Virus genome (UHGV): UHGV-0219172
Origin: a virus
Reading direction: 5' to 3' (one strand)
Length of the DNA stretch: 31,814 nt
In this document: positions 783 through 31,701 of the stretch, piece by piece
How positions within the stretch are numbered: the first letter of the stretch is position 1
Layout: each line of letters opens with the position of its first letter
Made by a program: the position numbers and the translations under genes
Notes under the pieces: generated by a model
What the model was told of the DNA's origin: nothing
The model's input: the letters and a program-made list of their open reading frames with translations, nothing else
Databases searched by the model: none

Positions 783-809
783 AAAAAATAAGCCCGTGTA
801 AGGGAGATT
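783..809. repeat. attL core: 27-bp direct repeat AAAAAATAAGCCCGTGTAAGGGAGATT (P2-type att core)
   Basis: Exact 27-bp copy also at 31675-31701. Sits about 80 bp beyond the int stop codon. Matches my recollection of the P2 att core sequence. Confidence 0.85.
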
Positions 810-888
810 TAGGGTGTCATCAGTAGGGGCTTTCAACGGTACAATGCGGGTTTGAGCGGCATAAATGACCACTGAAAGCCCTTAAACG

Positions 889-1902
889 TTACTCTACTGT
901 GGACACTGTGTGGACACTCTCGGCCTCAGTACCACCTCTCAGCGGATTAAGAGAAATGGCGTCCTGAAGGTACTCTGGAGCAAAATGAGCGTAAACCATA
1001 GTTTGCTCAATCCGCGTGTGACCTAGTATCCGTTGTAGCGTGATAATACTTCCTCCATTAATCATGAAATGAGTGGCAAAGCTGTGCCTTAGTGCATGTG
1101 TGGCTTGCCCCATTGGCAAATCCGGTTTTATTGCTTTCATTGTTCGTCTGAAGCGAGGGTAATCAGCATCAGGGAATAAAAAACCTCGTTTGTTATCCGC
1201 GATCATTTTGGCAACAGCCTCTGAGATCGGGACGGTGCGTGGTTTGTTTGTTTTCGTTTTAACAAACGTGACGCGGTTATGAATGATATTTTCTGCTTTC
1301 AAACGAGCTGCTTCTCCCCAACGTGCTCCAGTACTCAGGCAAAGAATCGCAATCTTTTTGTTGTCGCCGTCAAGAGCTGCGAGCAGTAAGGCAATTTCTT
1401 CCTGCGTGAGATAGCCTGTGTCTGGTTTTTCCTCCTTAAGCCTTTTTGTCCCTCTGATAGGGTGCTCACCAAAGTATAACTCCGCTTCAATCAGGGCTGT
1501 AAACATGCCGCTAATACATGTTAAATCACGATTGATACTCGAAGGTTTAATACCCTGACTTCTTCGGGTGGCGCAGTATTGGCTGATAAGCGATTTCGTA
1601 ATTTGAAATGCGCATGGGTCATTCGTTATTTTTGTGAAGATTTCAATTTTTCCAAGATTAGATTTCCCATGCTCTTCGTGTTTACCCTTTAAATCCCACC
1701 AGATCTGTGTCAGCTCCGACAGACGTCGCTTGTCTGTTGGTTTTGATAGCCATTCTTTATTGTGGTGGTTGTACAACGTGTATTTCTCGAAAGCGACAGC
1801 TTCGCTTTTCTTATCAAACTTCCTACGGATGCGTTTTCCATTACGTCCAGTAGGGCGGATGTCCACTTCATATCGACCATCATCGAGTTTTTTGATTGCC
1901 AT
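889..1902 (-). CDS. int: P2-type tyrosine integrase
   Basis: 337-aa ORF adjacent to attL. C-terminal region contains ...HALRHSFATHFMINGGSIITLQRILGHTRIEQTMVYAH..., the tyrosine-recombinase R-H-R-Y catalytic region. Lies downstream of the C repressor gene as in P2. Confidence 0.9.
   Translation of the reverse strand: MAIKKLDDGRYEVDIRPTGRNGKRIRRKFDKKSEAVAFEKYTLYNHHNKEWLSKPTDKRRLSELTQIWWDLKGKHEEHGKSNLGKIEIFTKITNDPCAFQITKSLISQYCATRRSQGIKPSSINRDLTCISGMFTALIEAELYFGEHPIRGTKRLKEEKPDTGYLTQEEIALLLAALDGDNKKIAILCLSTGARWGEAARLKAENIIHNRVTFVKTKTNKPRTVPISEAVAKMIADNKRGFLFPDADYPRFRRTMKAIKPDLPMGQATHALRHSFATHFMINGGSIITLQRILGHTRIEQTMVYAHFAPEYLQDAISLNPLRGGTEAESVHTVSTVE
898..917. promoter_or_regulatory. candidate Int arm-type binding sites: two direct TGTGGACAC repeats spaced 11 bp
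   Basis: TGTGGACAC at 898-906 and 909-917, inside the last codons of int. Matches recalled P2 Int arm-site consensus TGTGGACA. Confidence 0.5.
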
Positions 1903-2017
1903 CAGAAAACCCTCCGAGTGGTGTGTTTTTTTGCGACTACTAATCGTTTTTTTCGTGGTGGCTGAAATTTAGCCACCAATAGTAGGCACTTGTGATGAAT
2001 ATATTCACGATGAATTG

Positions 2018-2317
2018 TTAACCAGTCTTTTGACCGGAGTGGGGCGACGTTGTTTCGTTTTGCCCAAAGTGTGCGAGAGCGGGCGCAATTTGCCCGGACT
2101 CAGGAGCGATCTGATTTGTCATGAACCATAAAGTGTATTTGGTGAATTGTGGGGTCTGCAGGATGTTCATCATGACATCTGTTGGAGGTGTTGAACGACC
2201 ACTTTCATAGTAACTCAGCGTGCCATACGGAACCCCTGTTAAATCAGCAAGTTGTTGTCTGCTCAAATACTCAGATTTTCGCATTAAGACTATCTTCTCG
2301 CTTATCGTGTTTGACAT
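2018..2317 (-). CDS. C: immunity repressor C
   Basis: 99-aa ORF with an HTH region (LSRQQLADLTGVPYGTLSYYESG), transcribed divergently from cox, directly upstream of int as in P2. Confidence 0.85.
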   Translation of the reverse strand: MSNTISEKIVLMRKSEYLSRQQLADLTGVPYGTLSYYESGRSTPPTDVMMNILQTPQFTKYTLWFMTNQIAPESGQIAPALAHFGQNETTSPHSGQKTG

Positions 2318-2350
2318 AGTGTTTAGATCTCAATAGTATTTAGTTTAGAT
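2311..2350. promoter_or_regulatory. early promoter Pe with C-repressor operator half-sites (two 8-bp direct repeats GTTTAGAT, 22 bp centre to centre, flanking the -10)
   Basis: TTGACA at 2311-2316, 17-bp spacer, TAGTAT at 2334-2339. GTTTAGAT at 2321-2328 and 2343-2350. Fits the P2 arrangement of operator repeats flanking the Pe -10. Confidence 0.6.
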
Positions 2351-2380
2351 GTAGATTGTTTAGTGCTTGGATGTGGGCAC

Positions 2381-2410
2381 TAAAAGGCATTATAAGGCAT
2401 TAAACGCAAT
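2381..2410. promoter_or_regulatory. three tandem ~10-bp repeats (TAAAAGGCAT / TATAAGGCAT / TAAACGCAAT), candidate Cox boxes in the Pc region
   Basis: Directly visible 10-bp periodic repeats immediately upstream of cox, in the region where a leftward C promoter would lie. Resembles recalled P2 Cox-box consensus (TTAAAG/CNCA). Confidence 0.4.
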
Positions 2411-2431
2411 TCATGAGGGCTGGAGGACGAC

Positions 2432-2707
2432 ATGAGCAAGCAAGTAACACTCATGACTGATGCGATTCCTTATCAGGAGTTCGCAAAACTAATAGGAAAA
2501 TCGACAGGAGCGGTTCGTCGGATGATCGATAAAGGAAAGCTGCCTGTAATTGATATGACCGATCCACAATCAGCTTCAGGTCGTGCAGGTGAATATTGGG
2601 TATACCTTCCGGCATGGAATAACGGACTAAAACTGGCTTATGAAAGCCGCCCTAAAGAGATTCGTGACGGCTGGTTGATGTGGTTAGGTCTCGGTGAACC
2701 ACGTTAA
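2432..2707 (+). CDS. cox: Cox, excisionase and repressor of Pc
   Basis: 91-aa ORF, first gene of the rightward early operon, divergent from C. Position and size as in P2. Confidence 0.85.
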   Translation: MSKQVTLMTDAIPYQEFAKLIGKSTGAVRRMIDKGKLPVIDMTDPQSASGRAGEYWVYLPAWNNGLKLAYESRPKEIRDGWLMWLGLGEPR

Positions 2708-2717
2708 GGAGAACCGT

Positions 2718-2888
2718 ATGAATGAGCCTCGTTGTATTGCTCAGTTACTGCGTAACGAAAGCCCCAGGGCGATTGACTTCACCATTACCCACGGTAAGGG
2801 ACGCAAGGGAATCATTATCCGCACCAAAAAACAGAGTCCGTTAAAGAAGGCTCTGACCTTTCTGAAAAGTCGGAGGGTCTGGAAATGA
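2718..2888 (+). CDS. small early protein (P2 orf78-like), unknown function
   Basis: ATG at 2718 with AAGGAG 6 nt upstream. The track ORF begins at GTG 2694, which I consider less likely. Stop overlaps the B start (ATGA). Confidence 0.55.
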   Translation: MNEPRCIAQLLRNESPRAIDFTITHGKGRKGIIIRTKKQSPLKKALTFLKSRRVWK

Positions 2889-3385
2889 CAGTGATGACGC
2901 TCAATCTTGTTGAAAAACAGCCAGCAGCTATGCGCCGGATAATTGGTAAGCATCTGGCCGTCCCTCGCTGGCAGGAGACATGCGATTATTATAATCAGAT
3001 GATGGAACGTGAACGGCTAACGGTTTGCTTCCATGCGCAGTTAAAACAGCGTCACGCAACGATGCGTTTTGAAGAAATGAATGATGTCGAACGTGAACGA
3101 CTGGTATGTGCAATTGATGAATTGCGTGGGGCATTCTCAAAACGCCGTCAGGTTGGCGCAAGTGAGTATGCATATATTAGTTTTTTAACAGTCAGTCAGC
3201 GTCGTACTTTATTTATGCATGCCGGATTGACTGAAAAAGAATTCAACCAGCCATACTGGCGAATTAATGAAGAGTCATGTTACTGGCGTGATGCTTTATT
3301 CCGTGCATTACGTGAATTATTCAGCCTGTTTGAGTATGCACCGACAATTCTGACGTCGGTAAAACCAGAGCAATATCTGCATTAA
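2885..3385 (+). CDS. B: replication protein B (helicase-loader-like)
   Basis: 166-aa ORF in the P2 B position; translation consistent with P2 gpB. Confidence 0.8.
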   Translation: MTVMTLNLVEKQPAAMRRIIGKHLAVPRWQETCDYYNQMMERERLTVCFHAQLKQRHATMRFEEMNDVERERLVCAIDELRGAFSKRRQVGASEYAYISFLTVSQRRTLFMHAGLTEKEFNQPYWRINEESCYWRDALFRALRELFSLFEYAPTILTSVKPEQYLH

Positions 3386-3448
3386 GTAATTAACCAGAGT
3401 TTTTAACGCACTTAATCGTGCGGGGCTTCTTTTTGCCTGGAGAAAGTT

Positions 3449-3673
3449 ATGCATACAGTTTCTGAAAATCAGTGCGGTAAATACGCATTACTGCTGCAAC
3501 AGGCCAGAACCGAAGCACAGGCCGACGCTGCGACGCGCTTTTCTTCTCATCTTGATGCCATGATTCGCCACATCACAAAGGCGGAGTTATCCCGCGTGGA
3601 GATAGTCGAGCTGCTCAGTCAGGAGTCGGAAAAATTTCACAATATCGGATTGTCTCGCGGGGAGGTGCTTTGA
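3449..3673 (+). CDS. early operon small protein (P2 orf80-like)
   Basis: 74-aa ORF with GGAG SD, in the conserved P2 early-operon position. Confidence 0.6.
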
Positions 3674-3975
3674 TGTCCTGTTCTCGTTCAGTTGTATTAC
3701 TGAATAACGCCTTAAAAATCGCCGTTATGAAAAATGGCGATTTGTCTCTTATTCAACTTGGTCTTGATAAAGAAAAACGCGAAATAACTGAGTCTGTTAT
3801 CGCGATTTATCAGAACGAATTAAACCTCCTGTCTGATGTGGTCAATTTACTTGTTAAACGCGCTGTGTTTCACAAGCAAATCTCCTCCGTGGATGAACTG
3901 ACGAAATTAACGACAGAAATCGCCAGCTATTGCGCTGATGAATTTAAAAAACTGAACGACAAAAGGAACTGGTAA
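3670..3975 (+). CDS. early operon small protein (P2 orf81-like)
   Basis: 101-aa ORF translationally coupled to the upstream gene (start overlaps its stop). Confidence 0.6.
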
Positions 3976-4199
3976 TGCCGGACAACGTAGATTTTATTCA
4001 GGAACAACAGGCTGAATTACTGGAGCGCCAGATTAACGCGGCAAGGGTAAAACATTGCGGTGTTTCTTCGCTGGTTTGCGAAGAGTGTGATGCGCCAATA
4101 CCTGCTGCCCGTCGTGCGGCTTATCCGTCAGCCACGCGTTGTGTTTCCTGTCAGTCAGTCTTTGAAGCAAAAAACAAACATTACCGGAGAACGGCATGA
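3975..4199 (+). CDS. TraR/DksA-type C4 zinc-finger protein (P2 orf82-like)
   Basis: 74-aa ORF with CEEC-x17-CVSC, a four-cysteine zinc finger of the DksA/TraR type. Confidence 0.65.
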   Translation: MPDNVDFIQEQQAELLERQINAARVKHCGVSSLVCEECDAPIPAARRAAYPSATRCVSCQSVFEAKNKHYRRTA

Positions 4200-4471
4200 G
4201 TATTCGTATTGAAATTGGCGAACGTTATGTCGTTACCAGTGACAGCTTTCAGTTTATTCTCCACGAGAAAAAGAGAGCGGAAAGCGGTAAAAACGCCGGT
4301 CAGGAATGGCTGTCGGTGGTTGGTTATTACCCGAAATTAAGCCAGCTCGTTTCCGGCCTGATGCATCACGATATTCTGACCGGAAGCGCAAAGTCTTTTG
4401 CTGATTTAAACGCGCAGGTTGAGCAACTCAGCAAGCGTTGTTCAGAGGCTTTTGGCTCATATGGCCGTTAA
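4196..4471 (+). CDS. early operon small protein (P2 orf83-like)
   Basis: 91-aa ORF, overlapping-start coupling with its neighbours. Confidence 0.55.
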   Translation: MSIRIEIGERYVVTSDSFQFILHEKKRAESGKNAGQEWLSVVGYYPKLSQLVSGLMHHDILTGSAKSFADLNAQVEQLSKRCSEAFGSYGR

Positions 4472-6632
4472 AGCCTCCGGGCGTTTTGTCCCTCCGCCAG
4501 CATTTGCCGCAGGCACCGGTAAGGCGTTTACCGGTGCTTATGCATGGAACGCGCCACGCGAGGCCGTCGGGCGCGAAAGACCCCTTACACGTGACGAGAT
4601 GCGTCAGGTGCAAGGTGTTTTATCCACGATTAACCGCCTGCCTTACTTTTTGCGCTCGCTGTTTACTTCACGCTATGACTACATCCGGCGCAATAAAAGC
4701 CCGGTGCACGGGTTTTATTTCCTCACATCCACTTTTCAGCGTCGTTTATGGCCGCGCATTGAGCGTGTGAATCAGCGCCATGAAATGAACACCGACGCGT
4801 CGTTACTGTTTCTGGCAGAGCGTGACCACTATGCGCGCCTGCCGGGAATGAATGATAAGGAGCTAAAAAAGTTTGCTGCCCGTATCTCATCGCAGCTTTT
4901 CATGATGTATGAGGAACTCAGCGATGCCTGGGTGGATGCGCATGGCGAAAAAGAATCGCTGTTTACGGATGAGGCGCAGGCTCACCTCTATGGTCATGTT
5001 GCTGGCGCTGCACGTGCTTTCAATATTTCCCCGCTCTACTGGAAAAAATACCGTAAAGGGCAGATGACCACGAGGCAGGCATATTCTGCCATTGCCCGTC
5101 TGTTTAACGATGAGTGGTGGACTCATCAGCTTAAAGGCCAGCGTATGCGCTGGCATGAGGCGTTACTGATTGCTGTCGGGGAGGTCAATAAAGACCGTTC
5201 TCCTTATGCCAGTAAACATGCCATTCGTGATGTGCGTGCACGCCGCCAGGCAAATCTGGAATTTCTTAAATCGTGTGACCTTGAAAACAGGGAAACCGGC
5301 GAGCGCATCGACCTTATCAGTAAGGTGATGGGCAGTATTTCTAATCCTGAAATTCGCCGGATGGAGCTGATGAACACCATTGCCGGTATTGAGCGTTACG
5401 CCGCCGCAGAGGGTGATGTGGGGATGTTTATCACGCTGACCGCGCCGTCAAAGTATCACCCGACACGTCAGGTCAGAAAAGGCGAAAGTAAAACCGTTCA
5501 GCTTAATCACGGCTGGAACGATGAGGCATTTAATCCAAAGGATGCGCAGCGTTATCTCTGCCGCATCTGGAGCCTGATGCGCACGGCATTCAAGGATAAT
5601 GATTTACAGGTCTACGGTTTGCGTGTCGTCGAGCCACACCACGACGGAACGCCGCACTGGCATATGATGCTTTTTTGTAATCCACGCCAGCGTAACCAGA
5701 TTATCGAAATCATGCGTCGCTACGCGCTCAAAGAGGATGGAGACGAAAGAGGAGCTGCGCGAAACCGTTTTCAGGCAAAACACCTTAACCGGGGCGGTGC
5801 TGCGGGATATATCGCGAAATACATTTCAAAAAACATCGACGGCTATGCACTGGATGGTCAGCTCGATAACGATACCGGCAGGCCGCTGAAAGACACAGCG
5901 GCGGCTGTTACCGCATGGGCGTCAACGTGGCGCATCCCGCAATTTAAAACGGTTGGCCTGCCGACAATGGGGGCTTACCGTGAACTACGCAAATTGCCTC
6001 GCGGCGTCAGCATTGCTGATGAGTTTGACGAACGCGTCGAGGTTGCACGCGCCGCCGCAGACAGTGGTGATTTTGCGTTGTATATCAGCGCGCAGGGCGG
6101 GGCAAATGTCCCGCGCGATTGTCAGACTGTCAGGGTCGCCCGTAGTCCGTCGGATGAAGTTAACGAGTACGAGGAAGAAGTCGAGAGAGTGGTCGGCATT
6201 TACGCGCCGCATCTCGGCGCGCGTCATATTCATATCACCAGAACGACGGACTGGCGCATTGTGCCGAAAGTGCCGGTCGTTGAGCCTTTGACTTTAAAAA
6301 GCGGCATCGCCGCGCCTCGGAGTCCTGTCAATAACTGTGGAAAGTTCACCGGCGGTGACGTTCCGGTTATGCACCCTACACCGTCTGAGCATGCCGCAGC
6401 GGTGTTAAATCTGGTTGATAGTGGTGTTATCGGATGGGATGACCCGGAAGTTGTGACGGTGCTCAGGAGTGCATTAAAACATGGTGCACCGAGACCGAAT
6501 TGGCAACAAAGAAACTGCGAACCATTAAAACCGTACCAGATAGCGCCATCAGGGCGGATGAAAAAGGCTGAACGTTCGCAGATTCCACGCATCCATTTCG
6601 AGCTGGCACTAATTGGTAAAACCTATCAATAG
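4461..6632 (+). CDS. A: replication initiation protein A (rolling-circle nickase)
   Basis: Large ORF; the translation contains GYIAKYISKNIDGY, the paired active-site tyrosine motif of P2 A-type initiators. Start is ambiguous: in-frame ATGs at 4419 and 4461, both overlapping the end of the upstream gene. Confidence 0.85.
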   Translation: MAVKASGRFVPPPAFAAGTGKAFTGAYAWNAPREAVGRERPLTRDEMRQVQGVLSTINRLPYFLRSLFTSRYDYIRRNKSPVHGFYFLTSTFQRRLWPRIERVNQRHEMNTDASLLFLAERDHYARLPGMNDKELKKFAARISSQLFMMYEELSDAWVDAHGEKESLFTDEAQAHLYGHVAGAARAFNISPLYWKKYRKGQMTTRQAYSAIARLFNDEWWTHQLKGQRMRWHEALLIAVGEVNKDRSPYASKHAIRDVRARRQANLEFLKSCDLENRETGERIDLISKVMGSISNPEIRRMELMNTIAGIERYAAAEGDVGMFITLTAPSKYHPTRQVRKGESKTVQLNHGWNDEAFNPKDAQRYLCRIWSLMRTAFKDNDLQVYGLRVVEPHHDGTPHWHMMLFCNPRQRNQIIEIMRRYALKEDGDERGAARNRFQAKHLNRGGAAGYIAKYISKNIDGYALDGQLDNDTGRPLKDTAAAVTAWASTWRIPQFKTVGLPTMGAYRELRKLPRGVSIADEFDERVEVARAAADSGDFALYISAQGGANVPRDCQTVRVARSPSDEVNEYEEEVERVVGIYAPHLGARHIHITRTTDWRIVPKVPVVEPLTLKSGIAAPRSPVNNCGKFTGGDVPVMHPTPSEHAAAVLNLVDSGVIGWDDPEVVTVLRSALKHGAPRPNWQQRNCEPLKPYQIAPSGRMKKAERSQIPRIHFELALIGKTYQ

Positions 6633-6735
6633 TGATTTAATGAAATTTCGGAGTCATAAATATTGTGTATTTAACTAGATGATTGCAATATAAGTGCTTA
6701 TTATTTATGCGATTATAGCCATAACGGAGCTGAGT

Positions 6736-7665
6736 ATGAGTGTTGCAAGGCATCATCATTTTTTATCCCAATGTTATTTGAAAGGGTTTACAAGTAATGG
6801 GGGGAAAAAATCAAAATTAACTGTAATAGATTTAAAGGAGCGCAAAACCTTTGAGAGTAATACTCGCAATGTCGGGGGGGTTAGAGATTTCAACCGATTA
6901 GAATTGGATGGAGTTGACCCAAACTATCTCGAGAGTTCTCTTGCAGAGTTTGAAGGCAGTGTAGCTACTCATTTAAGAAAACTTGAGGAGGGGGGCGAGT
7001 TTTCAGGCGAAACCAAAGATGTTATTCTGGAGTTTATTTCCTTATTGGCAATACGTACGCCTGCTCAGCGAGAACATTTATCATCTCCATTGAAACAAAT
7101 AGCAAAGTTTATCATGAAATCCTCAGTTAGTTCGGCTGAGCGTTGGGACGATTGCAAATTAGCTTATGAGAAAGAAATGGGTGAGTCTTTGCCATATGAT
7201 CTCGCTTACGAAAAAATTAAAAATTTTGTGGATGGGGATAATTTCGAAATCAATGTAATCAGAGAGTTCATGATAGATATGGAAATGAAATGTGTACCTG
7301 TTATCACCAAGTTGTTGCATCAACGCAACTGGTCACTTATGACCATATCTGATGGGCAAGGGTCATTTATAACTTCAGATAACCCAGTTTGCTTAATGTG
7401 GACTAATCCTGAATTAGCACGAGGCCCTTATTCCCCCGGGTTTGGTGTAAAAGACACTTTAGTTTTGTTCCCAGTATCAAAAAACCTTCTTTTGGCGGGC
7501 GAGTTTGATGGTCATGAGGGTGTATTCAGTTGTAATGAGGAGCAGGCTGCGGTCTTCAATACTTCAGTCATTCGGCATACCGCAGAAAGAATATTTTCAT
7601 CTAATGATAATTTCAAATTTTTAGACTCATCTAAAAAAATGAAGCAAGGCAAAAGCCTGGTTTGA
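6736..7665 (+). CDS. cargo gene at the A-cos (tin/old) position: DUF4238-like protein, candidate single-gene anti-phage defence
   Basis: ATG 6736 with GGAG SD (6726-6729). The track start at 6694 is GTG. N-terminus HHFLSQCYLKGF and internal ITSDNPV resemble recalled DUF4238 signatures. Visibly AT-rich relative to the flanking phage genes. Confidence 0.55.
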   Translation: MSVARHHHFLSQCYLKGFTSNGGKKSKLTVIDLKERKTFESNTRNVGGVRDFNRLELDGVDPNYLESSLAEFEGSVATHLRKLEEGGEFSGETKDVILEFISLLAIRTPAQREHLSSPLKQIAKFIMKSSVSSAERWDDCKLAYEKEMGESLPYDLAYEKIKNFVDGDNFEINVIREFMIDMEMKCVPVITKLLHQRNWSLMTISDGQGSFITSDNPVCLMWTNPELARGPYSPGFGVKDTLVLFPVSKNLLLAGEFDGHEGVFSCNEEQAAVFNTSVIRHTAERIFSSNDNFKFLDSSKKMKQGKSLV

Positions 7666-7880
7666 TAGCGGTTTTTCTATGATTTTACTAGGAGAATTCT
7701 ACCCTTAATCAGTGTGTTTAAAATGATTAATTGTCATAACATTTTTTCATTTTTAGGTGTGCCTAGAAATGCATTCAATTGCATGCGTTTTCCTCCCCTG
7801 TTGCGTCTGAGCGCCACCAGTGCCGGCGCGCCTCCGGTGTATTCGTGCACCTGCATTAAAACCGACCCATAAAGCGGGCA

Positions 7881-7899
7881 GGCGAGGCGGGGATAGCAC
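7881..7899. other. candidate cos site (19-nt cohesive end region GGCGAGGCGGGGATAGCAC)
   Basis: Lies in the GC-rich non-coding region between the cargo gene and the Q stop, where P2 cos resides. Differs at about two positions from my recollection of P2 cos (GGCGAGGCGGGGAAAGCAC). Confidence 0.5.
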
Positions 7900-8041
7900 T
7901 GCGCGCTGGCGGTGGTGCTGATTTTATTTTTTCAGCGTCTCAGCGCGTCGTGACGGCGTTTGGATTGTGCGCCGGGGCGTTGGTGTGTCTGCGGGGTGTT
8001 TTGTGCGGTGGTGAGCGTGTGAGGGCGTGATGACGGGGTGT

Positions 8042-8063
8042 AAAAAAGCCGCCCGCAGGCGGC
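8042..8063 (-). terminator. rho-independent terminator after Q (minus strand)
   Basis: GC stem GCCGCC/GGCGGC (8048-8053 and 8058-8063) with a 4-nt loop, then a six-A run at 8042-8047 (six U on the minus-strand RNA), immediately after the Q stop codon. Confidence 0.6.
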
Positions 8064-8068
8064 GATGT

Positions 8069-10875: not shown

Positions 10876-11048
10876 GAATACCTCGCCGTGATGAATACAC
10901 GGCAAGGCTACTGAGTCGCGCCCCGCGATTCGCTAAGGTGCTGTTGTGTCAGTGATAAGCCATCCGGGACTGATGGCGGAGGATGCGCATCGTCGGGAAA
11001 CTGATGCCGACATGTGACTCCTCTAATCACTATTCAGGACTCCTGACA

Positions 11049-11903: not shown

Positions 11904-11961
11904 CCGGCGTCAGCCAGTCCGGGAAAACCTTCACGATTAACCCTTAATTTCAGGAAAAACT

Positions 11962-20696: not shown

Positions 20697-20706
20697 GTGA
20701 GGAATA

Positions 20707-22635: not shown

Positions 22636-22638
22636 TTT

Positions 22639-23166
22639 ATGCAGCATTTAAAAAATATTATTGCGGGTAATCCAAAAACTGTTGCCCAATATCAACTGAC
22701 AAAAAATTTTGATGTTATCTGGTTATGGTCCGAAGAGGGAAAAAACTGGTATGAGGAAGTAAGTAATTTTCAGGAGGACACGATAAAGATTGTTTACGAC
22801 GAGAATAATATAATTGTCGGCATCACCAGAGATGCTTCAACGCTTAACCCTGAAGGTTTTAGCGTTGTCGAGGTTCCTGATATTACCGCCAACCGACGTG
22901 CTGATGACTCAGGTAAATGGATGTTTAAGGATGGTGCCGTGATTAAGCGGATTTATACGGCAGACGAACAGCAACAACAGGCCGAATCACAAAAGGCCGC
23001 GTTACTTTCCGAAGCGGAAAGCGTTATCCAGCCGCTGGAACGCACCGTCAGGCTGAATATGGCGACGGATGAGGAGCGCGCACGACTGGAGTCATGGGAA
23101 CGCTACAGCGTTCTGGTCAGCCGTGTGGATCCTGCAAATCCTGAATGGCCGGAAATACCGCAATAA
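22639..23166 (+). CDS. G: tail fiber assembly chaperone
   Basis: 175-aa ORF immediately after H, with lower GC like the H C-terminus. Confidence 0.8.
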
Positions 23167-23456
23167 GTTGTATGATATCTGGAGTGAGCTAACGTATCTA
23201 TGGCACAGAGTAAAACTTAATCTGACAGTCTGCTCTGTACCAAAAGCGGAACTTGCTTACATCGTGCTATGTTAGTTTGCTGGGAGCAGGTCATTATCTA
23301 CGTGATTGCTATTTTATAACTTGGATAAAATGAGGGATGAACATAATATCGAGACAGTGATTGCAGAGTTAGTCATTATAGGCGGGCATCAGTTCATGCC
23401 GGATCTCTAATGCAATTATCAGGAAAATATGGGACGTTTTATCAATCAGAGGAAAT

Positions 23457-24683
23457 ATGTTACAGTTCAGCTTTGTATCAAATGACGTTGTTATGACTTA
23501 CGACGGTGACAGCGGAGAACAAATAATTTGGGTTTGGGAGAGTTTAAATAAATTTCAAACAGTATGCATTTCACGAATTTTTAACTTTCAACTCCAGGAC
23601 TTGAGAAACCCACCGTCAACCGTTCAGGATTTTAATGATTACGAATATTCCTTTAATTTTGGCACGCTTAATAATGAATACATAACAGTTCCGGGACGGA
23701 TTCTAAGCATTAATCGAGATGTCCTTATACATAAGTCCATCAAGCTTGAAAGGAAAGTATTTGCGTCAGAACGCAACGTCTCCATTTTTGGTCGGCTTTC
23801 AAAACTACTCGATCACACTAATCCCATCATCATCGGAGGAGATAAGCCGGAAGCTATACCAAAAAGCGTATTCCAGGAGTTGCAAAGTAAATTCCACAAC
23901 ACAGGGGAACTGGATCGCTATGCTAATGCAAGGGTTCACGCTATTCTCGCAGGTTATCTTGATGGTATGAAAGATGCTCGCGAACGGTATGAACATTACC
24001 TAAACAGAAAAACAGTGATCAGAAAAACCGACAAACTGGATTTAGAAGTTTTAAATAAGCTCGAAATTGAGAAATATACACTCATAAGAGACATTATCCA
24101 GGATGCGTTGAATAACAAAACTAACTTGTCTGAAGATGACTGGCAGAGCCTGATGATACCCTTCATCACATTACTTTTTCCAAAATATATCAAGGTCCTC
24201 GAGAAGGTTAAAATTTTCGACTATTACTCTAATCCTTCGGCTAAAACAAATCGGTTTATAGACATTGCACTGGTGGATGCAAACGGCAACCTTGATATCA
24301 TCGAAGTCAAAAAGCCGTTTGATGATAAGATCCTTCGCAAGACGCCCTATCGCGATAACTATATTCCTACATCAGAACTTAGCGGCGGTATTATGCAGGC
24401 TGAAAAGTATATTTTTCATTTATCTAAATGGGGTGTTAAGGGTGAAAAAGAGCTTACGAATGCCTACAAGAATTCTCTGCCAGCGGGAATGTGTATTCGT
24501 ATATCTAACCCAAAAGCCATCATCATTGTCGGACGCGATCAGATAGCGAACGGTAACATGACCGACGGTCAGTTGCTTGATTTTGAGATAATCAAACGTA
24601 AGTACGCCAACATGATAGACATATTGACGTACGACGACCTGTTGCGTCGACTTAATAATACGATTGAAGCATTGAAAGGTTGA
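23457..24683 (+). CDS. cargo gene at the G-FI (Z/fun) position: 408-aa protein with a C-terminal PD-(D/E)xK nuclease-like core, possibly Shedu (DUF4263)-like; candidate anti-phage defence
   Basis: ATG 23457 with GAGG SD. Visibly AT-rich, flanked by about 290 bp of non-coding DNA on each side. C-terminal region FIDIALVDANGNLDIIEVKKP ... QAEKY gives D269/D280, E283-x-K285 and Q314...Y318, a restriction-endonuclease-fold pattern. Confidence 0.5.
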   Translation: MLQFSFVSNDVVMTYDGDSGEQIIWVWESLNKFQTVCISRIFNFQLQDLRNPPSTVQDFNDYEYSFNFGTLNNEYITVPGRILSINRDVLIHKSIKLERKVFASERNVSIFGRLSKLLDHTNPIIIGGDKPEAIPKSVFQELQSKFHNTGELDRYANARVHAILAGYLDGMKDARERYEHYLNRKTVIRKTDKLDLEVLNKLEIEKYTLIRDIIQDALNNKTNLSEDDWQSLMIPFITLLFPKYIKVLEKVKIFDYYSNPSAKTNRFIDIALVDANGNLDIIEVKKPFDDKILRKTPYRDNYIPTSELSGGIMQAEKYIFHLSKWGVKGEKELTNAYKNSLPAGMCIRISNPKAIIIVGRDQIANGNMTDGQLLDFEIIKRKYANMIDILTYDDLLRRLNNTIEALKG

Positions 24684-24752
24684 ATGCCCATGAGGTTCAC
24701 ACCCACAACGGGGAGCAGGTCACTTCCTCTTGTTTGATTGACATACCATAAC

Positions 24753-24776
24753 GTCTGCTTTTGGCTCAAAGCAGAC
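24753..24776 (+). terminator. hairpin, candidate terminator of the cargo gene
   Basis: 9-bp stem GTCTGCTTT / AAAGCAGAC with a 6-nt loop, about 70 bp after the stop, followed by T-rich sequence. Confidence 0.45.
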
Positions 24777-24844
24777 TGTCTGATTTGATAGCTTTTGGGC
24801 TATGTAAATTGTCAGTTGAAAAATGAGTGAGTACAAATCAGGAC

Positions 24845-24872
24845 GGGCGGGCGAGTTGCCCGCCTTTTCTTT
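24845..24872 (+). terminator. rho-independent terminator upstream of the FI late promoter region
   Basis: GC stem GGCGGGC (24846-24852) and GCCCGCC (24858-24864), loop GAGTT, then TTTTCTTT. Confidence 0.6.
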
Positions 24873-24969
24873 AATCTGTTGTTTCATCCACTGACCAGTC
24901 AGGTCAAATAGCGTCTTATGCACTGCCCAACAGAAAATAGTTGCACCCATTAACCACGGAGTTAAACGG

Positions 24970-26160
24970 ATGAGTGACTATCATCACGGCGTGCAGGTGC
25001 TGGAGATTAACGACGGCACCCGCGTCATTTCCACCGTATCCACCGCCATTGTTGGCATGGTCTGCACGGCCAGCGATGCGGATGCGGAAATCTTCCCACT
25101 CAATAAACCGGTGCTGATTACCAATGTGCAGAGCGCAATTGCAAAGGCCGGTAAAAAAGGCACGCTGGCGGCGTCGTTACAGGCCATCGCTGACCAGTCA
25201 AAACCGGTCACCGTTGTCGTACGTGTGGAAGACGGCACCGGCGACGACGAGGAAACGAAACTCGCGCAGACCGTTTCCAATATCATCGGCACTACCGACG
25301 AAAACGGTCAGTACACCGGACTGAAAGCCCTGCTGGCGGCGGAGTCGGTAACCGGTGTTAAACCGCGTATTCTCGGTGTGCCGGGGCTGGATACCAAAGA
25401 GGTGGCTGTTGCACTGGCATCAGTCTGTCAGAAGCTGCGCGCTTTCGGGTATATCAGCGCATGGGGCTGTAAAACCATTTCCGAGGTGAAAGCTTACCGC
25501 CAGAATTTCAGCCAGCGTGAGCTGATGGTCATCTGGCCGGATTTCCTCGCATGGGATACGGTCGCCAGTACCACCGCCACCGCGTATGCCACCGCCCGTG
25601 CGCTGGGTCTGCGCGCTAAAATCGACCAGGAGCAGGGCTGGCATAAAACGCTGTCCAACGTCGGGGTGAACGGTGTTACCGGCATCAGCGCATCTGTATT
25701 CTGGGATTTGCAGGAGTCCGGTACTGATGCTGACCTGCTTAACGAGTCAGGTGTCACTACGCTGATTCGCCGCGACGGTTTCCGCTTCTGGGGTAACTGT
25801 ACCTGCTCTGATGACCCGCTGTTCCTCTTTGAAAACTACACCCGCACCGCGCAGGTGTTGGCCGACACGATGGCTGAGGCGCACATGTGGGCGGTGGATA
25901 AGCCCATCACCGCAACGCTGATTCGCGACATCGTTGACGGCATCAATGCCAAATTCCGTGAGCTGAAAACAAACGGCTATATCGTGGATGCGACCTGCTG
26001 GTTCAGCGAAGAATCCAACGATGCGGAAACCCTCAAGGCCGGAAAACTGTATATCGACTACGACTATACACCGGTGCCTCCTCTCGAAAACCTGACCCTG
26101 CGCCAGCGTATTACCGATAAATACCTGGCAAATCTGGTCACCTCGGTTAACAGCAATTAA
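24970..26160 (+). CDS. FI: contractile tail sheath protein
   Basis: 396-aa ORF followed by the tail tube gene; conserved P2 FI/FII pair. Confidence 0.9.
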   Translation: MSDYHHGVQVLEINDGTRVISTVSTAIVGMVCTASDADAEIFPLNKPVLITNVQSAIAKAGKKGTLAASLQAIADQSKPVTVVVRVEDGTGDDEETKLAQTVSNIIGTTDENGQYTGLKALLAAESVTGVKPRILGVPGLDTKEVAVALASVCQKLRAFGYISAWGCKTISEVKAYRQNFSQRELMVIWPDFLAWDTVASTTATAYATARALGLRAKIDQEQGWHKTLSNVGVNGVTGISASVFWDLQESGTDADLLNESGVTTLIRRDGFRFWGNCTCSDDPLFLFENYTRTAQVLADTMAEAHMWAVDKPITATLIRDIVDGINAKFRELKTNGYIVDATCWFSEESNDAETLKAGKLYIDYDYTPVPPLENLTLRQRITDKYLANLVTSVNSN

Positions 26161-26172
26161 GGAGCCTGACCG

Positions 26173-26691
26173 ATGGCAATGCCGCGCAAACTCAAGTTAA
26201 TGAACGTCTTTCTGAACGGCTACAGCTATCAGGGCGTCGCAAAGTCCGTCACGCTGCCAAAACTGACCCGTAAGCTCGAAAACTATCGCGGTGCGGGGAT
26301 GAACGGCAGCGCACCGGTAGACCTCGGCCTTGATGACGATGCGCTGTCAATGGAGTGGTCGCTCGGGGGCTTCCCGGATTCGGTTATCTGGGAGCTTTAC
26401 GCCGCAACCGGTGTGGATGCCGTGCCGATTCGTTTTGCTGGCTCTTACCAGCGCGACGATACCGGCGAAACGGTGGCCGTCGAAGTGGTCATGCGTGGAC
26501 GTCAGAAAGAAATCGACACCGGAGAGGGTAAACAGGGAGAAGACACCGAGTCGAAAATCTCCGTGGTCTGCACCTATTTCCGGCTGACGATGGACGGTAA
26601 GGAGCTGGTCGAAATCGACACCATCAACATGATTGAGAAGGTGAACGGCGTCGACCGGCTGGAGCAACACCGCCGTAATATCGGCCTGTGA
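26173..26691 (+). CDS. FII: tail tube protein
   Basis: 172-aa ORF following the sheath gene. Confidence 0.9.
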   Translation: MAMPRKLKLMNVFLNGYSYQGVAKSVTLPKLTRKLENYRGAGMNGSAPVDLGLDDDALSMEWSLGGFPDSVIWELYAATGVDAVPIRFAGSYQRDDTGETVAVEVVMRGRQKEIDTGEGKQGEDTESKISVVCTYFRLTMDGKELVEIDTINMIEKVNGVDRLEQHRRNIGL

Positions 26692-26747
26692 TTTTCATAC
26701 GGTCAGCCAGGCTGACCGGTTAACCCTGATTCAGAAGTGAGAAAACC

Positions 26748-27023
26748 ATGGACAAAGAAAATGTCATTACCCTGGAAAATCCGGTCAAACGTGGTGAGCA
26801 GGTTATCGAACAGGTCACGCTGATGAAACCCAGTGCCGGGACGCTGCGCGGTGTCAGTCTGGCTGCGGTCGCAAACTCCGAAGTCGATGCACTGATTAAA
26901 GTGCTGCCGCGCATGACGGCACCGATGCTGACCGAGCAGGAAGTTGCCGCGTTGGAACTGCCTGACCTTGTGGCGCTGGCCGGTAAGGTGGTCGGTTTTT
27001 TGTCGCCGAACTCGGTGCAGTAA
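26748..27023 (+). CDS. E: tail assembly chaperone E (in-frame product)
   Basis: 91-aa ORF immediately upstream of the tape measure gene, ending just after the slippery heptamer. Confidence 0.85.
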   Translation: MDKENVITLENPVKRGEQVIEQVTLMKPSAGTLRGVSLAAVANSEVDALIKVLPRMTAPMLTEQEVAALELPDLVALAGKVVGFLSPNSVQ

Positions 27024-27175
27024 CGTTTCCTAAAAATCTGTCGGTCGATGACCTGATGGCGGATGTGGCAGTGATATTTCACTGGCCGCCATCAGAACTG
27101 TATCCCATGAGTCTGACCGAACTCATCACATGGCGCGAAAAGGCGCTCCGGCGAAGCGGAAACACGAATGAGTAA
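26748..27175 (+). CDS. E': tail assembly chaperone E+E' (-1 programmed ribosomal frameshift product)
   Basis: Slippery T TTT TTG at 26996-27002. The -1 frame stays open to a TAA at 27173-27175 and encodes ...FPKNLSVDDLMADVAVIFHWPPSELYPMSLTELITWREKALRRSGNTNE, overlapping the T start. Confidence 0.75.
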
Positions 27176-29615
27176 CAATGTAAAATTACAGGTATTGCTC
27201 AGGGCTGTTGACCAGGCATCCCGCCCGTTTAAATCCATCCGCACAGCGAGCAAATCGCTGTCGGGGGATATCCGGGAAACACAAAAATCACTGCGCGAGC
27301 TGAACGGTCAGGCATCCCGTATTGAGGGATTTCGCAAGACCAGTGCACAGCTCGCCGTGACTGGTCAGGAACTGAAAAAAGCCAGACAGGAAGCCGCAGC
27401 TCTGGCTGTCCAGTTTAAAAATACTGAACGACCGACAAATGCACAGGCAAAGGCAATGGAAGCCGCGCGTAAAAATGCGTCTGAGTTACAGGCGAAATAT
27501 AACAGCCTGAGATTGTCGGTACAGCGCCAGCGTCAGGAATTGAGTCAGGCGGGTATTAATACCCGTAATCTGGCGCATGATGAACGAGGGCTGAAAAACC
27601 GTATCAGTGAAACCACCGCACAGCTTAACCGTCAGCGCGACGCGCTGGCGCGTGTCAGTGCGCAACAGGCAAAACTTAATGCAGTAAAACAGCGTTATCA
27701 GGCCGGAAAGGAACTGGCTGGAAATATGGCCTCGGTAGGCGCTGCCGGTGTGGGGATTGCGGCGGCGGGAACGATGGCCGGAGTTAAGCTGCTGATGCCC
27801 GGTTATGAGTTTGCGCAGAAAAACTCAGAATTGCAGGCCGTGCTGGGTGTGGCAAAAGACTCCGCCGAAATGACCGCACTCCGCAAGCAGGCGCGCCAGC
27901 TCGGCGACAATACCGCAGCCTCGGCGGATGATGCAGCCGGTGCACAGATTATCATTGCGAAAGCCGGCGGGGATGCTGCGGCTATTCAGGCGGCAACGCC
28001 GGTAACGCTGAATATGGCACTGGCGAATCAGCGGTCGATGGAAGAAAACGCGCAACTGTTGCTGGGGACTAAGGTATCCTTTCAACTGTCAAATGATGAT
28101 GTCAGCCATGTGGGCGACGTGTTGTCGGCAAAGATGAATAAGTCGGCGGCTGATTTTCAGGGACTCAGTGATGCACTGACTTACCTCGGTCCGGTTGCGA
28201 GGACGGCAGGTGTAAGTCTTGAACAGGCTGCAGCCATGACAGGTGTGCTGCATGACAATAACATCAGGGGGTCAATGGCGGGTACGGGTAGTAGTGCCGT
28301 TGTCACCCGATTACAGGCTCCGACAGGGAAAGCATGGGAAGCACTAAAAGAGCTTGGCGTTAAAACCTCGGACAAAAAGGGAAATATGCGTCCGTTGTTC
28401 ACCATTCTGAAAGAGATTCAGGTCAGCTTTGATAAACACAAGCTGGGAACGTCTCAGAAGGGGGAATACCTTAAAACCATTTTTGGTGAGGAAGCCCTGA
28501 AATCAGCGAACGTTTTACTGGCAGCGGCAGCAAGCGGAAAACTGGATAAGCTGACCGCCACGCTGAAAGCATCGGACGGTAAAACGGAAGAGCTGGTTAA
28601 AATCATGCAGGATAACCTCGGTGGTGACTTTAAGGAGTTTCAGTCCGCTTATGAGGCGGTGGGGACTGACCTGTTTGACCAGCAGGAAGGCACACTGCGT
28701 AAGCTCACTCAGACGGCCACAAAGTATGTGTTAAAACTCGACGGCTGGATCCAGAAAAACAAATCACTGGCGTCAACCATCGGCCTCATTGCCGGTGGCG
28801 CGCTGGCGCTTATTGGCATCATCGGTGCAATTGGTCTTGCAGCCTGGCCGGTTATCACCGGCATCAATGCCATCATCGCGGCAGCAGGCGCAATGGGTGC
28901 AATCTTCACGACGGTTGGTAGTGCCGTTATGACGGCCATCGGGGCGATTAGCTGGCCGGTTGTGGCCGTGGTGGCTGCAATTGTCGCCGGGGCGTTGCTT
29001 ATCCGTAAATACTGGGAGCCTGTCAGCGCATTCTTTGGCGGTGTGGTGGAAGGGCTGAAAGCGGCATTTGCGCCGGTGGGAGAACTGTTCACGCCACTGA
29101 AGCCGGTGTTTGACTGGCTGGGCGAAAAGTTACAGGCCGCGTGGCAGTGGTTTAAAAACCTGATTGCCCCGGTTAAAGCCACCCAGGACACCCTGAACCG
29201 TTGCCGTGACACGGGCGTCATGTTCGGGCAGGCACTGGCTGACGCACTGATGCTGCCGCTTAATGCGTTCAACAAACTGCGCAGTGGTATTGACTGGGTG
29301 CTGGAAAAACTCGGTGTTATCAACAAAGAGTCAGACACACTTGACCAGACCGCCGCAAGGACTAATGCCGCCACGTATGGCACCGGTGGTTATATTCCGG
29401 CGACCAGCTCTTATGCAGGCTATCAGGCTTACCAGCCGGTCACGGCACCGGCTGGCCGCTCTTATGTGGACCAGAGTAAAAACGAATATCACATCAACCT
29501 GACGGGCGGTACTGCGCAGGGGACACAGCTCGACCGCCAGTTACAGGATGCACTCGAAAAATACGAGCGGGATAAACGTGCGCGCGCCCGTGCCAGCATG
29601 ATGCATGACGGTTAA
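27168..29615 (+). CDS. T: tail tape measure protein
   Basis: 815-aa ORF with an Ala/Gln-rich coiled-coil N-terminal half and hydrophobic Gly/Ala-rich segments. Confidence 0.9.
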   Translation: MSNNVKLQVLLRAVDQASRPFKSIRTASKSLSGDIRETQKSLRELNGQASRIEGFRKTSAQLAVTGQELKKARQEAAALAVQFKNTERPTNAQAKAMEAARKNASELQAKYNSLRLSVQRQRQELSQAGINTRNLAHDERGLKNRISETTAQLNRQRDALARVSAQQAKLNAVKQRYQAGKELAGNMASVGAAGVGIAAAGTMAGVKLLMPGYEFAQKNSELQAVLGVAKDSAEMTALRKQARQLGDNTAASADDAAGAQIIIAKAGGDAAAIQAATPVTLNMALANQRSMEENAQLLLGTKVSFQLSNDDVSHVGDVLSAKMNKSAADFQGLSDALTYLGPVARTAGVSLEQAAAMTGVLHDNNIRGSMAGTGSSAVVTRLQAPTGKAWEALKELGVKTSDKKGNMRPLFTILKEIQVSFDKHKLGTSQKGEYLKTIFGEEALKSANVLLAAAASGKLDKLTATLKASDGKTEELVKIMQDNLGGDFKEFQSAYEAVGTDLFDQQEGTLRKLTQTATKYVLKLDGWIQKNKSLASTIGLIAGGALALIGIIGAIGLAAWPVITGINAIIAAAGAMGAIFTTVGSAVMTAIGAISWPVVAVVAAIVAGALLIRKYWEPVSAFFGGVVEGLKAAFAPVGELFTPLKPVFDWLGEKLQAAWQWFKNLIAPVKATQDTLNRCRDTGVMFGQALADALMLPLNAFNKLRSGIDWVLEKLGVINKESDTLDQTAARTNAATYGTGGYIPATSSYAGYQAYQPVTAPAGRSYVDQSKNEYHINLTGGTAQGTQLDRQLQDALEKYERDKRARARASMMHDG

Positions 29616-29629
29616 GGAGGTGACGAAAA

Positions 29630-30109
29630 ATGATGCTCGCGTTAGGTATGTTTGTTTTTATGCGCCAGACGCTGCCACACCAGACCATGCAGCGTGAATC
29701 AGATTATCGCTGGCCGTCAAATTCCCGTATCGGTAAACGGGATGCCTACCAGTTTCTCGGTGTGGGTGAGGAAAACATTACGCTTGCCGGTGTGCTTTAT
29801 CCCGAACTGACAGGCGGAAAGCTGACGATGACCACGCTCAGGCTGATGGCAGAGGAAGGTCGGGCGTGGCCGTTGCTGGATGGCACCGGCATGATTTACG
29901 GCATGTATGTCATCAGCAGGGTGAGTGAAACAGGGAGTATTTTCTTTTCAGACGGCACACCCCGGAAAATTGATTTTACGCTGTCGCTCACCCGCGTTGA
30001 TGAATCACTGGCCGCGCTTTATGGCGATATCGGTAAACAGGCGGAGTCGCTCATCGGTAAGGTTGGCAGTATGGCGACCAGATTCACGGGGATGACGGGG
30101 GCGGGATAA
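29630..30109 (+). CDS. U: tail protein U
   Basis: 159-aa ORF after T. Confidence 0.85.
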   Translation: MMLALGMFVFMRQTLPHQTMQRESDYRWPSNSRIGKRDAYQFLGVGEENITLAGVLYPELTGGKLTMTTLRLMAEEGRAWPLLDGTGMIYGMYVISRVSETGSIFFSDGTPRKIDFTLSLTRVDESLAALYGDIGKQAESLIGKVGSMATRFTGMTGAG

Positions 30110-31272
30110 TGCTGGATGCGCTGACATTTGATGCAGGCAGTACGCTGACGCCGGATTACATGCTGATGCTCGACAGCAGGGATATTACCGGCAATATCAG
30201 CGACCGTCTGATGAGTATGACCCTGACGGATAACAGGGGCTTTGAAGCTGACCAGCTTGATATTGAACTGAACGATGCTGACGGGCAGGTCGGGCTGCCG
30301 GTTCGTGGCGCTGTCCTGACGGTGTATATCGGCTGGAAAGGCTTTGCCCTGGTATGCAAAGGGAAATTTACCGTTGATGAGGTTGAACACCGGGGCGCGC
30401 CGGATGTGGTTACCATCCGTGCCCGGAGTGCAGATTTCCGCGGGACGCTTAATTCCCGCCGGGAAGGCTCCTGGCATGACACAACGCTCGGTGCAATTGT
30501 TGAGGCGATAGCCTCCCGTAACAGGCTGGAAGCCAGTGTCGCTCCGTCACTGGCCGGAATTAAAATCCCGCACATCGACCAGTCGCAGGAGTCTGATGCG
30601 AAATTCCTGACCCGTCTTGCAGAACGCAACGGCGGTGAGGTGTCGGTAAAAATGGGAAAACTGTTGTTTCTCAAAGCGGGGCAGGGGGTGACGGCCAGCG
30701 GTAAAAAAATCCCGCAGGTCACCATAACCCGCAGCGACGGCGACCGCCATCATTTTGCGATTGCTGACCGTGGAGCCTATACCGGCGTAACGGCAAAGTG
30801 GTTACACACCAAAGACCCGAAACCACAAAAGCAGAAGGTAAAACTGAAACGCAAAAAGAAAGAAAAACACCTGCGCGCACTGGAGCACCCGAAAGCAAAA
30901 CTGGTCACGCAGAAGAAAGCGCCAAAAGTACCGGAAGCGCGCGAAGGTGAATACATGGCCGGTGAGGCTGACAACGTTTTTGCCCTGACTACGGTATATG
31001 CCACGAAAGCACAGGCCATGCGTGCTGCTCAGGCGAAGTGGGACAAACTGCAACGGGGCGTTGCGGAGTTCTCCATCATCCTGGCTACCGGTCGTGCAGA
31101 TATTTACACGGAAACACCGGTCAGAGTGTCAGGCTTTAAGCGCGTCATAGACGAGCAGGACTGGACAATCACTAAGGTGACACATTTTCTGAATAATAGC
31201 GGCTTCACGACGTCCTTGGAGCTTGAGGTCAGGCTTTCTGATGTGGAGTACGAAACAGAAGATGATGAGTGA
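30109..31272 (+). CDS. D: tail protein D (late control gene D)
   Basis: 387-aa ORF after U and before ogr, with the characteristic Lys-rich segment (KQKVKLKRKKKEKHLR). Confidence 0.85.
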   Translation: MLDALTFDAGSTLTPDYMLMLDSRDITGNISDRLMSMTLTDNRGFEADQLDIELNDADGQVGLPVRGAVLTVYIGWKGFALVCKGKFTVDEVEHRGAPDVVTIRARSADFRGTLNSRREGSWHDTTLGAIVEAIASRNRLEASVAPSLAGIKIPHIDQSQESDAKFLTRLAERNGGEVSVKMGKLLFLKAGQGVTASGKKIPQVTITRSDGDRHHFAIADRGAYTGVTAKWLHTKDPKPQKQKVKLKRKKKEKHLRALEHPKAKLVTQKKAPKVPEAREGEYMAGEADNVFALTTVYATKAQAMRAAQAKWDKLQRGVAEFSIILATGRADIYTETPVRVSGFKRVIDEQDWTITKVTHFLNNSGFTTSLELEVRLSDVEYETEDDE

Positions 31273-31353
31273 TGTTTTTATTTTATCTGTTTGTTTTATA
31301 AGGATAAATTAACTAAAATGGCACCATCAACAAAACCGGAAGAGGTGCTCGCG

Positions 31354-31572
31354 ATGTTTCATTGTCCTTTATGCCAGCATGCCGCACATGCGCGTACAAG
31401 TCGCTATATCACTGACACGACAAAAGAGCGTTATCACCAGTGCCAGAACGTGAATTGCAGCGCCACGTTCATCACTTATGAGTCGGTACAGAGATACATC
31501 GTGAAGCCGGGAGAAGTCCACGCCGTGAGGCCGCACCCGTTGCCGTCAGGGCAGCAAATTATGTGGATGTAA
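31354..31572 (+). CDS. ogr: Ogr late-gene transcriptional activator (zinc finger)
   Basis: Starts MFHCPLCQHAAHARTSRY..., with CPLC...CQNVNC four-cysteine zinc finger, 72 aa. The track ORF extends upstream to 31291. Confidence 0.9.
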   Translation: MFHCPLCQHAAHARTSRYITDTTKERYHQCQNVNCSATFITYESVQRYIVKPGEVHAVRPHPLPSGQQIMWM

Positions 31573-31584
31573 TTACAAACAGAA

Positions 31585-31610
31585 AGCCCCTCAGTCGAGG
31601 GGCTTTTTTT
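31585..31610 (+). terminator. rho-independent terminator after ogr
   Basis: Stem AGCCCCTC / GAGGGGCT with loop AGTC, followed by a seven-T run. Confidence 0.8.
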
Positions 31611-31615
31611 GTCGA

Positions 31616-31634
31616 TGTGGTCAATGTGTGGACT
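31616..31634. promoter_or_regulatory. candidate Int arm-type sites on the ogr-side arm (TGTGGTCA and TGTGGACT, 11-bp spacing)
   Basis: Two TGTGG-containing direct repeats at 31616-31623 and 31627-31634, about 40 bp from the attR core, with the same 11-bp periodicity as the int-side sites. Confidence 0.4.
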
Positions 31635-31674
31635 TAACCAGAAATAAATCCTTTTATTTCAATTTGTTGTACGT

Positions 31675-31701
31675 AAAAAATAAGCCCGTGTAAGGGAGAT
31701 T
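31675..31701. repeat. attR core: second copy of the 27-bp att direct repeat
   Basis: Identical to 783-809. Confidence 0.85.

Follow-up and report, generated by a model that had tools for sequence, protein, structure and literature searches.

The question raised by virus genome UHGV-0219172 is whether the genes resembling those of phage P2 in this stretch of DNA, 31,814 nucleotides (nt) long and here called the window, make up a complete prophage, whether such a prophage could be induced, and what it carries besides the P2 functions. Our data argue strongly that positions 783–31701 of the window form a Peduovirus prophage with the immunity of P2 and an intact structure, integrated at the classical P2 site between yegR and cyaR/yegQ and likely to be non-inducible.

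The limits of the element are given by a 27-mer, AAAAAATAAGCCCGTGTAAGGGAGATT, which is present on the plus strand in two exact copies, at 783–809 (the attL core) and at 31675–31701 (the attR core). A third copy was not found in the window with up to three mismatches, and the mean in 100 dinucleotide-preserving shuffles was 0.00. Because the adjoining bases differ at the two copies (A versus T on the 5′ side, TAGG versus ACAC on the 3′ side), 27 base pairs (bp) is the full length of the exact repeat. The same 27 nt are the annotated attP core of phage P2 (NC_001895, 24356–24382, 27 of 27 positions). The left copy is separated by 80 nt from the end of int (889–1902, minus strand), and the right copy by 103 nt from the end of ogr (31354–31572, plus strand). 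The attL phage arm (810–925, plus strand) contains the Cox-binding region and the Int P′ arm sites and overlaps the 3′ end of int, and the attR phage arm (31583–31674, plus strand) contains the ogr terminator, the Int P-arm sites and an IHF site. These sites are nearly the same as those of P2, with 26/28 matching positions in the Int P arm, 33/34 in the IHF site, 73/74 in the Cox region, 27/27 in the Int P′ arm and 24/24 in the ogr terminator. The original prediction had proposed a complete P2-like prophage bracketed by an exact 27-bp direct repeat, with int beside the left copy and ogr beside the right. All of this was confirmed: the repeat is not due to chance and equals the P2 attP core, the neighbouring genes lie at the distances given above, and completeness is supported by synteny, intact genes, the near-identical Int, IHF and Cox sites and an exact empty attB in other genomes, as described below.

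Conservation of the P2 backbone, immunity and viability

The P2 genome was permuted to prophage order and compared with the window by BLAST, and 42 annotated P2 proteins were searched by tblastn. In the 30.9 kb delimited by the two core copies, five colinear blocks with 86–98% identity were found: int to most of A (783–6594, 97.1%), cos and Q to S (7881–17251, 97.6%), V to the N-terminus of H (18281–21432, 97.1%), the end of H and G (22438–23254, 86%), and FI to ogr together with the att arm (24750–31701, 92.8%). All P2 proteins outside the accessory regions (orf30, fun(Z), orf91, tin and old) were found by tblastn with 88–100% identity. The P2-homologous proteins are full length, free of gaps and without internal stops, with the exception of H and gpA, which are variants. 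For C, Cox, Ogr, X, Y, K, W and FII the identity to P2 is 100%.

The immunity repressor C (2018–2317, minus strand) matches P2 C over all of its 99 amino acids (aa), and the element is therefore placed in the P2 immunity class. As Cox is also identical, the C/Cox developmental switch is that of P2. P2 is the textbook example of a non-inducible prophage, and its C repressor is not cleaved by RecA after SOS induction. Phage 186 carries tum in the slot after gene A, and P2 is not known to have an antirepressor. The LexA box CTGT-N8-ACAG is absent from the window. Since the repressor is that of P2, which RecA does not cleave, and since the LexA box is lacking, the prophage should be non-inducible by DNA damage, including SOS induction and mitomycin treatment. 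An SOS-inducible prophage that excises upon DNA damage, which is how the original prediction of a plausibly inducible element would be understood, could draw on int, cox and att arms that are all intact. However, the repressor such a prophage would have to inactivate is identical to P2 C, and besides the missing LexA box there was no sign of a counterpart to the tum gene of 186, since the slot following A holds only a DUF4238 gene. We therefore consider induction by DNA damage highly improbable, and this part of the original prediction was not upheld. Phage may still be released spontaneously, or the prophage may be derepressed by a satellite of the P4 type. In the scheme that we propose, lysogeny would be held by the C repressor, excision would require Int plus Cox, and after derepression lytic growth would proceed via Cox, B, A and the Ogr-dependent late operons, followed by packaging from cos.

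It was also predicted that every essential P2 function is intact. The tblastn alignments revealed no stops or frameshifts in the P2-homologous genes, but the shortened C-terminus of gpA had escaped notice. Residues 1–719 of the 761 residues of P2 gpA align with 94% identity to the rolling-circle replication initiator encoded by A (4461–6632, plus strand), which has 723 aa. Because the boundary of a cargo cassette falls inside A, the protein is shorter and has a divergent end. This truncation is the main caveat on viability. The Phage_GPA domain (residues 133–462) is intact, and the ori nick site, located by coordinate mapping, lies inside a block that is 97% identical to P2. The cos site (7881–7899, plus strand; 19-nt cohesive-end sequence GGCGAGGCGGGGATAGCAC) is adjacent to the genes for portal and terminase and agrees with P2 cos at 18 of 19 positions. 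At the divergent late promoters pP and pO, the site for binding of the activator Ogr (10939–10969, plus strand) is identical to the P2 site (31/31). A candidate Ogr-type dyad, TTGT-N12-ACAA (18216–18235, plus strand), lies inside the cargo cassette between S and V, and its centre precedes the start codon of V by about 55 nt, the same spacing as that of the P2 pV site. The sequence and spacing of this dyad make it the predicted late-promoter site of the V operon.

Several observations weigh against an intact and functional prophage. Compared with P2 gpA, the gpA of the window is missing the terminal ~42 residues and diverges over its own last ~50 aa, whereas both isolated phages that were checked, W-phi and vB_YpM_50, have a gpA of 761 aa. 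The cos site carries one mismatch to P2 (A to T at position 14), the pV promoter region is within the swapped S/V cassette, and at pF the activator site has diverged from that of P2. The region of the A 3′ end, DUF4238 and cos is rare, being present with at least 99% identity in 14 of 5,426 complete Escherichia coli genomes. The whole element was found in none of these 5,426 genomes, and the best of them covers 87% of it at 97.6% identity. In addition, missense or regulatory defects may be hidden from sequence analysis. It could thus be argued that the element looks complete but is cryptic, with the gpA end, the cos variant or the changes at pV and pF blocking replication, packaging or tail synthesis. 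However, the identical gpA end and cos variant occur in the deposited genome of Escherichia phage pro483 and in the otherwise complete prophage of E. coli CD45. The intact catalytic domain of gpA, the position of the ori nick site in a well-conserved block, the correct spacing of the TTGT-N12-ACAA dyad from V and the lack of any stop or frameshift in the P2-homologous genes also speak against a defect, and we regard a cryptic prophage as unlikely. In both pro483 and the CD45 prophage, the 723-aa gpA end and the cos variant occur together with the DUF4238 cassette. This co-occurrence suggests that the A end, the cargo gene and cos move as one recombination unit. Judged from its sequence, the element is probably viable but non-inducible.

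The remaining backbone genes are arranged as in P2. The tyrosine integrase Int aligns over 337/337 aa with 99.4% identity to P2 Int. The gene for the excisionase and Pc repressor Cox (2432–2707, plus strand) is followed by the early operon orf78, B, orf80, orf81, orf82 and orf83 (2718–4471, plus strand), whose products are full length and 97–100% identical to those of P2. Q (portal) and P (large terminase) are encoded on the minus strand (8069–10875), and both products are full length (99.4% and 99.7%). The O operon, with O, N, M, L, X, Y, K, lysA, lysB, lysC, R and S (11049–17249, plus strand; full length, 90–100%), serves capsid formation, lysis and tail completion, and a terminator-like hairpin with a 10-bp stem and a T run follows it at 17400–17431 (plus strand). 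In the V operon (V, W, J, I, H and G; 18281–23166, plus strand), V to I are 97–100% and G is 92.6% identical to P2. H is an open frame of 642 aa with tail-fibre Pfam domains; its residues 1–251 are 95% identical to P2 H, and the receptor-binding part that follows, in the middle and C-terminal portions of H, is divergent. Positions 21255–21708 of H consist of 3.4 tandem copies of a 132-nt unit (89% matches) encoding Phage_fiber_2 repeats, and in P2 the homologous stretch is present once. The F operon (FI, FII, E, E+E′, T, U and D; 24970–31272, plus strand; full length, 88–100%) encodes the tail sheath, tube and tape measure. The programmed −1 frameshift product E+E′ is intact (141/143 identical to P2) and the slippery site GGTTTTTTG is kept. 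Ogr, encoded by the last gene before attR, is the late-gene activator.

Insertion at the 3′ end of cyaR

On the left, the element is flanked by yegR (306–623). The end of an IS1 copy (3′ end of insB and terminal inverted repeat) occupies positions 1–138 of the window, about 170 bp upstream of yegR, and IS1 occurs at this position in few genomes only. An unoccupied site was rebuilt by joining both flanks through a single copy of the core (423 nt). In K-12 this sequence is matched with 100% identity in two pieces around the known P2 remnant, which consists of a D fragment and ogrK, and the gene order there is cyaR-ogrK-yegR (PMC9765468). A 106-nt empty junction gave a single-piece 100% match in many genomes, including that of ATCC 8739. 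From these exact matches of the rebuilt empty site we therefore conclude that the insertion was precise and took place at the preferred P2 site. Comparison with an unoccupied locus had been proposed along with the original prediction as a check, and the exact empty attB in many E. coli genomes agrees with what was expected. A junction between yegR and an integrase gene is present in 811 of the 5,426 genomes (~15%), and in this respect the presence of a P2-type prophage at this locus matters little as a finding.

The host target of integration is a small RNA (sRNA) gene. A transfer RNA (tRNA) gene as att site was ruled out by a tRNA scan, which gave none. The gene of the sRNA CyaR (cyaR, also ryeE; 31678–31763, minus strand) is intact, with the last 24 nt lying within the attR core. 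It matches Rfam RF00112 with 100.7 bits, well over the gathering score of 47, and the match covers model positions 1–85 of 85 without truncation. Folding indicated that in the CyaR terminator the loop, together with the 3′ arm and the U-tail, is supplied by the att core, and that the hairpin crosses the core boundary; the attL core is thus a duplicate of the 3′ half of this terminator. The prophage is integrated into the 3′ end of cyaR and regenerates the gene at attR, because the phage and host cores are identical. Many phages rebuild their target in a similar manner when they integrate into tRNA genes. The original prediction was correct about the core repeat but had not recognised its position inside an sRNA gene. 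Integration would have occurred by recombination within the 27-bp core at the CyaR terminator through the P2 Int/IHF pathway, leaving an intact cyaR at attR and a spare terminator half at attL. The overlap of cyaR with the P2 att site is said to have been noted already in work on CyaR. A literature search on this overlap and on the viability of pro483 turned up nothing usable.

The bacterial sequence to the left of attL (735–769) resembles part of the phage P arm (31612–31646), and the resemblance extends to the Int arm-type sequence TCGATGTGGTCAATG. A local alignment of the two segments scores 34; shuffled sequences averaged 13.9 and reached 24 at most, with 0 of 2,000 shuffles reaching 34. 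The right-hand flanks have no such similarity. The flank that contains 735–769 matches 5,424 of the 5,426 E. coli genomes, and at least 80% of it is covered in 4,561. Since this P-arm-like flank is present in nearly all E. coli, the "empty" site may itself be the scar of an older P2-type attR.

Cargo genes in the three accessory slots

The P2 gene set had been predicted correctly, but about 20% of the element is cargo unrelated to P2, and this had gone unnoticed. Three regions, at slots where accessory genes are usually found in P2-like phages, have been swapped: a DUF4238 gene replaces the A end, orf91, tin and old (6594–7881), a gene for a 247-aa protein replaces orf30 (17251–18281), and a gene for the Shedu protein SduA replaces fun(Z) (23254–24750). 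The G+C content (GC) of these regions is 0.35–0.39, versus 0.55–0.60 in the core. The products of the three genes are presumably made in the lysogen, where they would most likely function as lysogenic-conversion genes that guard the lysogen, and hence the prophage, against other phages.

The first cargo gene (6736–7665, plus strand; GC 0.37) lies in the A/Q (old-tin) slot and is a single-gene DUF4238 anti-phage system. It matches the PADLOC model DUF4238-Pers (1.5e-219, 309/309 positions) and Pfam DUF4238 (4.2e-39). Its position between A and cos/Q corresponds to the gpA/gpQ hotspot, from which Rousset et al. obtained a single DUF4238 protein that conferred strong resistance to T7 (PMC9122126). 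Hotspots in the A/Q and tail regions of P2-like phages have been described (PMC9122126, PMC13586616, 10.1101/2024.10.15.618418). The third cargo gene (23457–24683, plus strand) encodes the Shedu nuclease SduA, with matches to PADLOC SduA (3.7e-218) and Pfam SduA_C (3.4e-33). The protein has a DUF4263/SduA_C nuclease domain of the PD-(D/E)xK type, as expected of this single-gene system. SduA senses the ends of DNA and is a DNA-nicking nuclease. The gene is part of a cassette in the Z/fun slot (23219–24785) which is bounded by imperfect inverted repeats of 32 nt (23219–23250 and 24754–24785; 84% complementary). The lysogen is predicted to resist T7-like phages via DUF4238, and T2, T6 and similar phages via Shedu.

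The second cargo gene (17454–18197, minus strand; GC 0.345) lies in the S/V (orf30) slot, and its 247-aa product belongs to phrog_12680, a group of unknown function. The protein had no match in Pfam, PADLOC or NCBIfam, and scans of the same databases with 80 relatives and with ten long relatives (547–718 aa) gave no meaningful match. A tblastn search against 50,697 phage records returned no match and a profile search of the PDB returned chance matches only. Homology to P2 orf30 was considered and rejected (hhalign probability 0.2%). Close relatives fall into seven clusters, and a profile search found 337 distant relatives. In the alignment of 80 relatives only N75, R126 and H131 are invariant, and N127 and R88 are kept in at least 90%. 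The arrangement R126-N127-x3-H131 conforms to the Rx4-6H motif of HEPN proteins, and in the profile scans no HEPN model of Pfam, PADLOC or NCBIfam matched the protein or its 80 relatives. A first AlphaFold2 model, built from 6 sequences, was discarded because of a predicted local distance difference test (pLDDT) score of 56.7; the model from 80 sequences has a pLDDT of 96. Foldseek searches with the model against PDB and BFVD found nothing with E ≤ 0.001.

The distribution of the family bears on its function. Relatives with 28–51% identity are present in the S/V slot, in divergent orientation, in four other P2-like phages (L004, L012, L013 and L015), in which the neighbouring V, W and J are 55–80% identical to those of the window. 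The sharing of one slot by such divergent phages fits long-term co-inheritance better than free exchange of cargo, and together with the lack of any match to a defence family it would be consistent with an accessory gene of benefit to the phage itself, for example a regulatory gene or one with an accessory role in tail formation or lysis, conserved with P2-like phages. Against this, the gene fills the slot in only 18 of the ~1,555 E. coli genomes that have an S/V junction. It is dispensable, because it is absent from P2, which has the unrelated orf30 in the slot, and from most P2-like prophages of E. coli. Moreover, it is AT-rich and opposed to the late operons, as are orf30, fun(Z), tin and old, and distant relatives are known outside phages (the contexts of L005–L008 were uninformative). 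We consider a phage-beneficial accessory a possible but doubtful explanation. On the basis of its slot, its composition and its dispensability, our best guess is a lysogenic-conversion or anti-phage gene, and the odds that the 247-aa protein has a role in defence are about even. HEPN-like catalysis is a tentative suggestion drawn from the conserved motif. The fuller proposal, that the gene represents a new single-gene anti-phage or exclusion family acting through an R-N-x3-H centre, possibly as a HEPN-like RNase, and that it is a fast-evolving, long-standing resident of the S/V slot, is likewise speculative. If it were true, P2-like phages would have a third defence hotspot in the S/V slot, in which this family recurs. 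A family that is predicted to fold well and has a catalytic-looking motif could be included in a screen for defence genes at little cost.

Comparison with P2, pro483 and related elements

The components of the element are all of described kinds, namely P2 with its att site, the hotspots, DUF4238, Shedu and CyaR, and the exact mosaic is absent from the genomes searched. The closest reference is P2 itself (NC_001895), whose preferred E. coli site is locI. The window shares with it the att core and the gene order int-C-cox-B-A, cos, Q-S, V-G, FI-D and ogr; there are no differences in C, Cox and Ogr, and for most structural proteins the identity is 97–100%. It differs from P2 in the three cargo swaps, in the receptor-binding part of H, in T (88%), in a gpA that is 38 aa shorter and in the one mismatch in cos. 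Phage pro483 (NC_028943) agrees with the window in the end of its 723-aa gpA, in the DUF4238 cassette and in the cos variant, but it has a different immunity region and an invertible tail-fibre segment and no Shedu. The CD45 prophage (NZ_CP182220) shares these three features and in addition carries Shedu at the Z position and occupies the yegR/yegQ site, but its S/V slot contains a gene for a 357-aa protein. For the 247-aa protein of the window, HEPN (Rx4-6H) ribonuclease toxins offer a lead and not an established family assignment.

The Shedu cassette can be compared with two known sequences. The Z-region of P2-EC31 (AJ512677) is 99.5% identical to the window over 1.8 kb, including the annotated flanking inverted repeats. 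Its ORF1, annotated as a putative lysogenic conversion protein, is the open reading frame now recognised as SduA. In that record a 1-nt deletion corresponding to window position 24412 shortens ORF1 to 362 aa, and the copy in the window has the full 408 aa; either the deletion is genuine and inactivates the gene, or the record contains a sequencing error. The E. coli SduA of PDB 8PS4 (bioRxiv 10.1101/2023.08.10.552762) is identical to the protein of the window at 407 of 408 residues, with P in place of H147. Whereas 8PS4 represents the crystallised protein, the window shows the gene in the Z/fun slot of a P2-like element, where it is native, and the element thus places the E. coli Shedu of known structure in the phage setting to which it naturally belongs.

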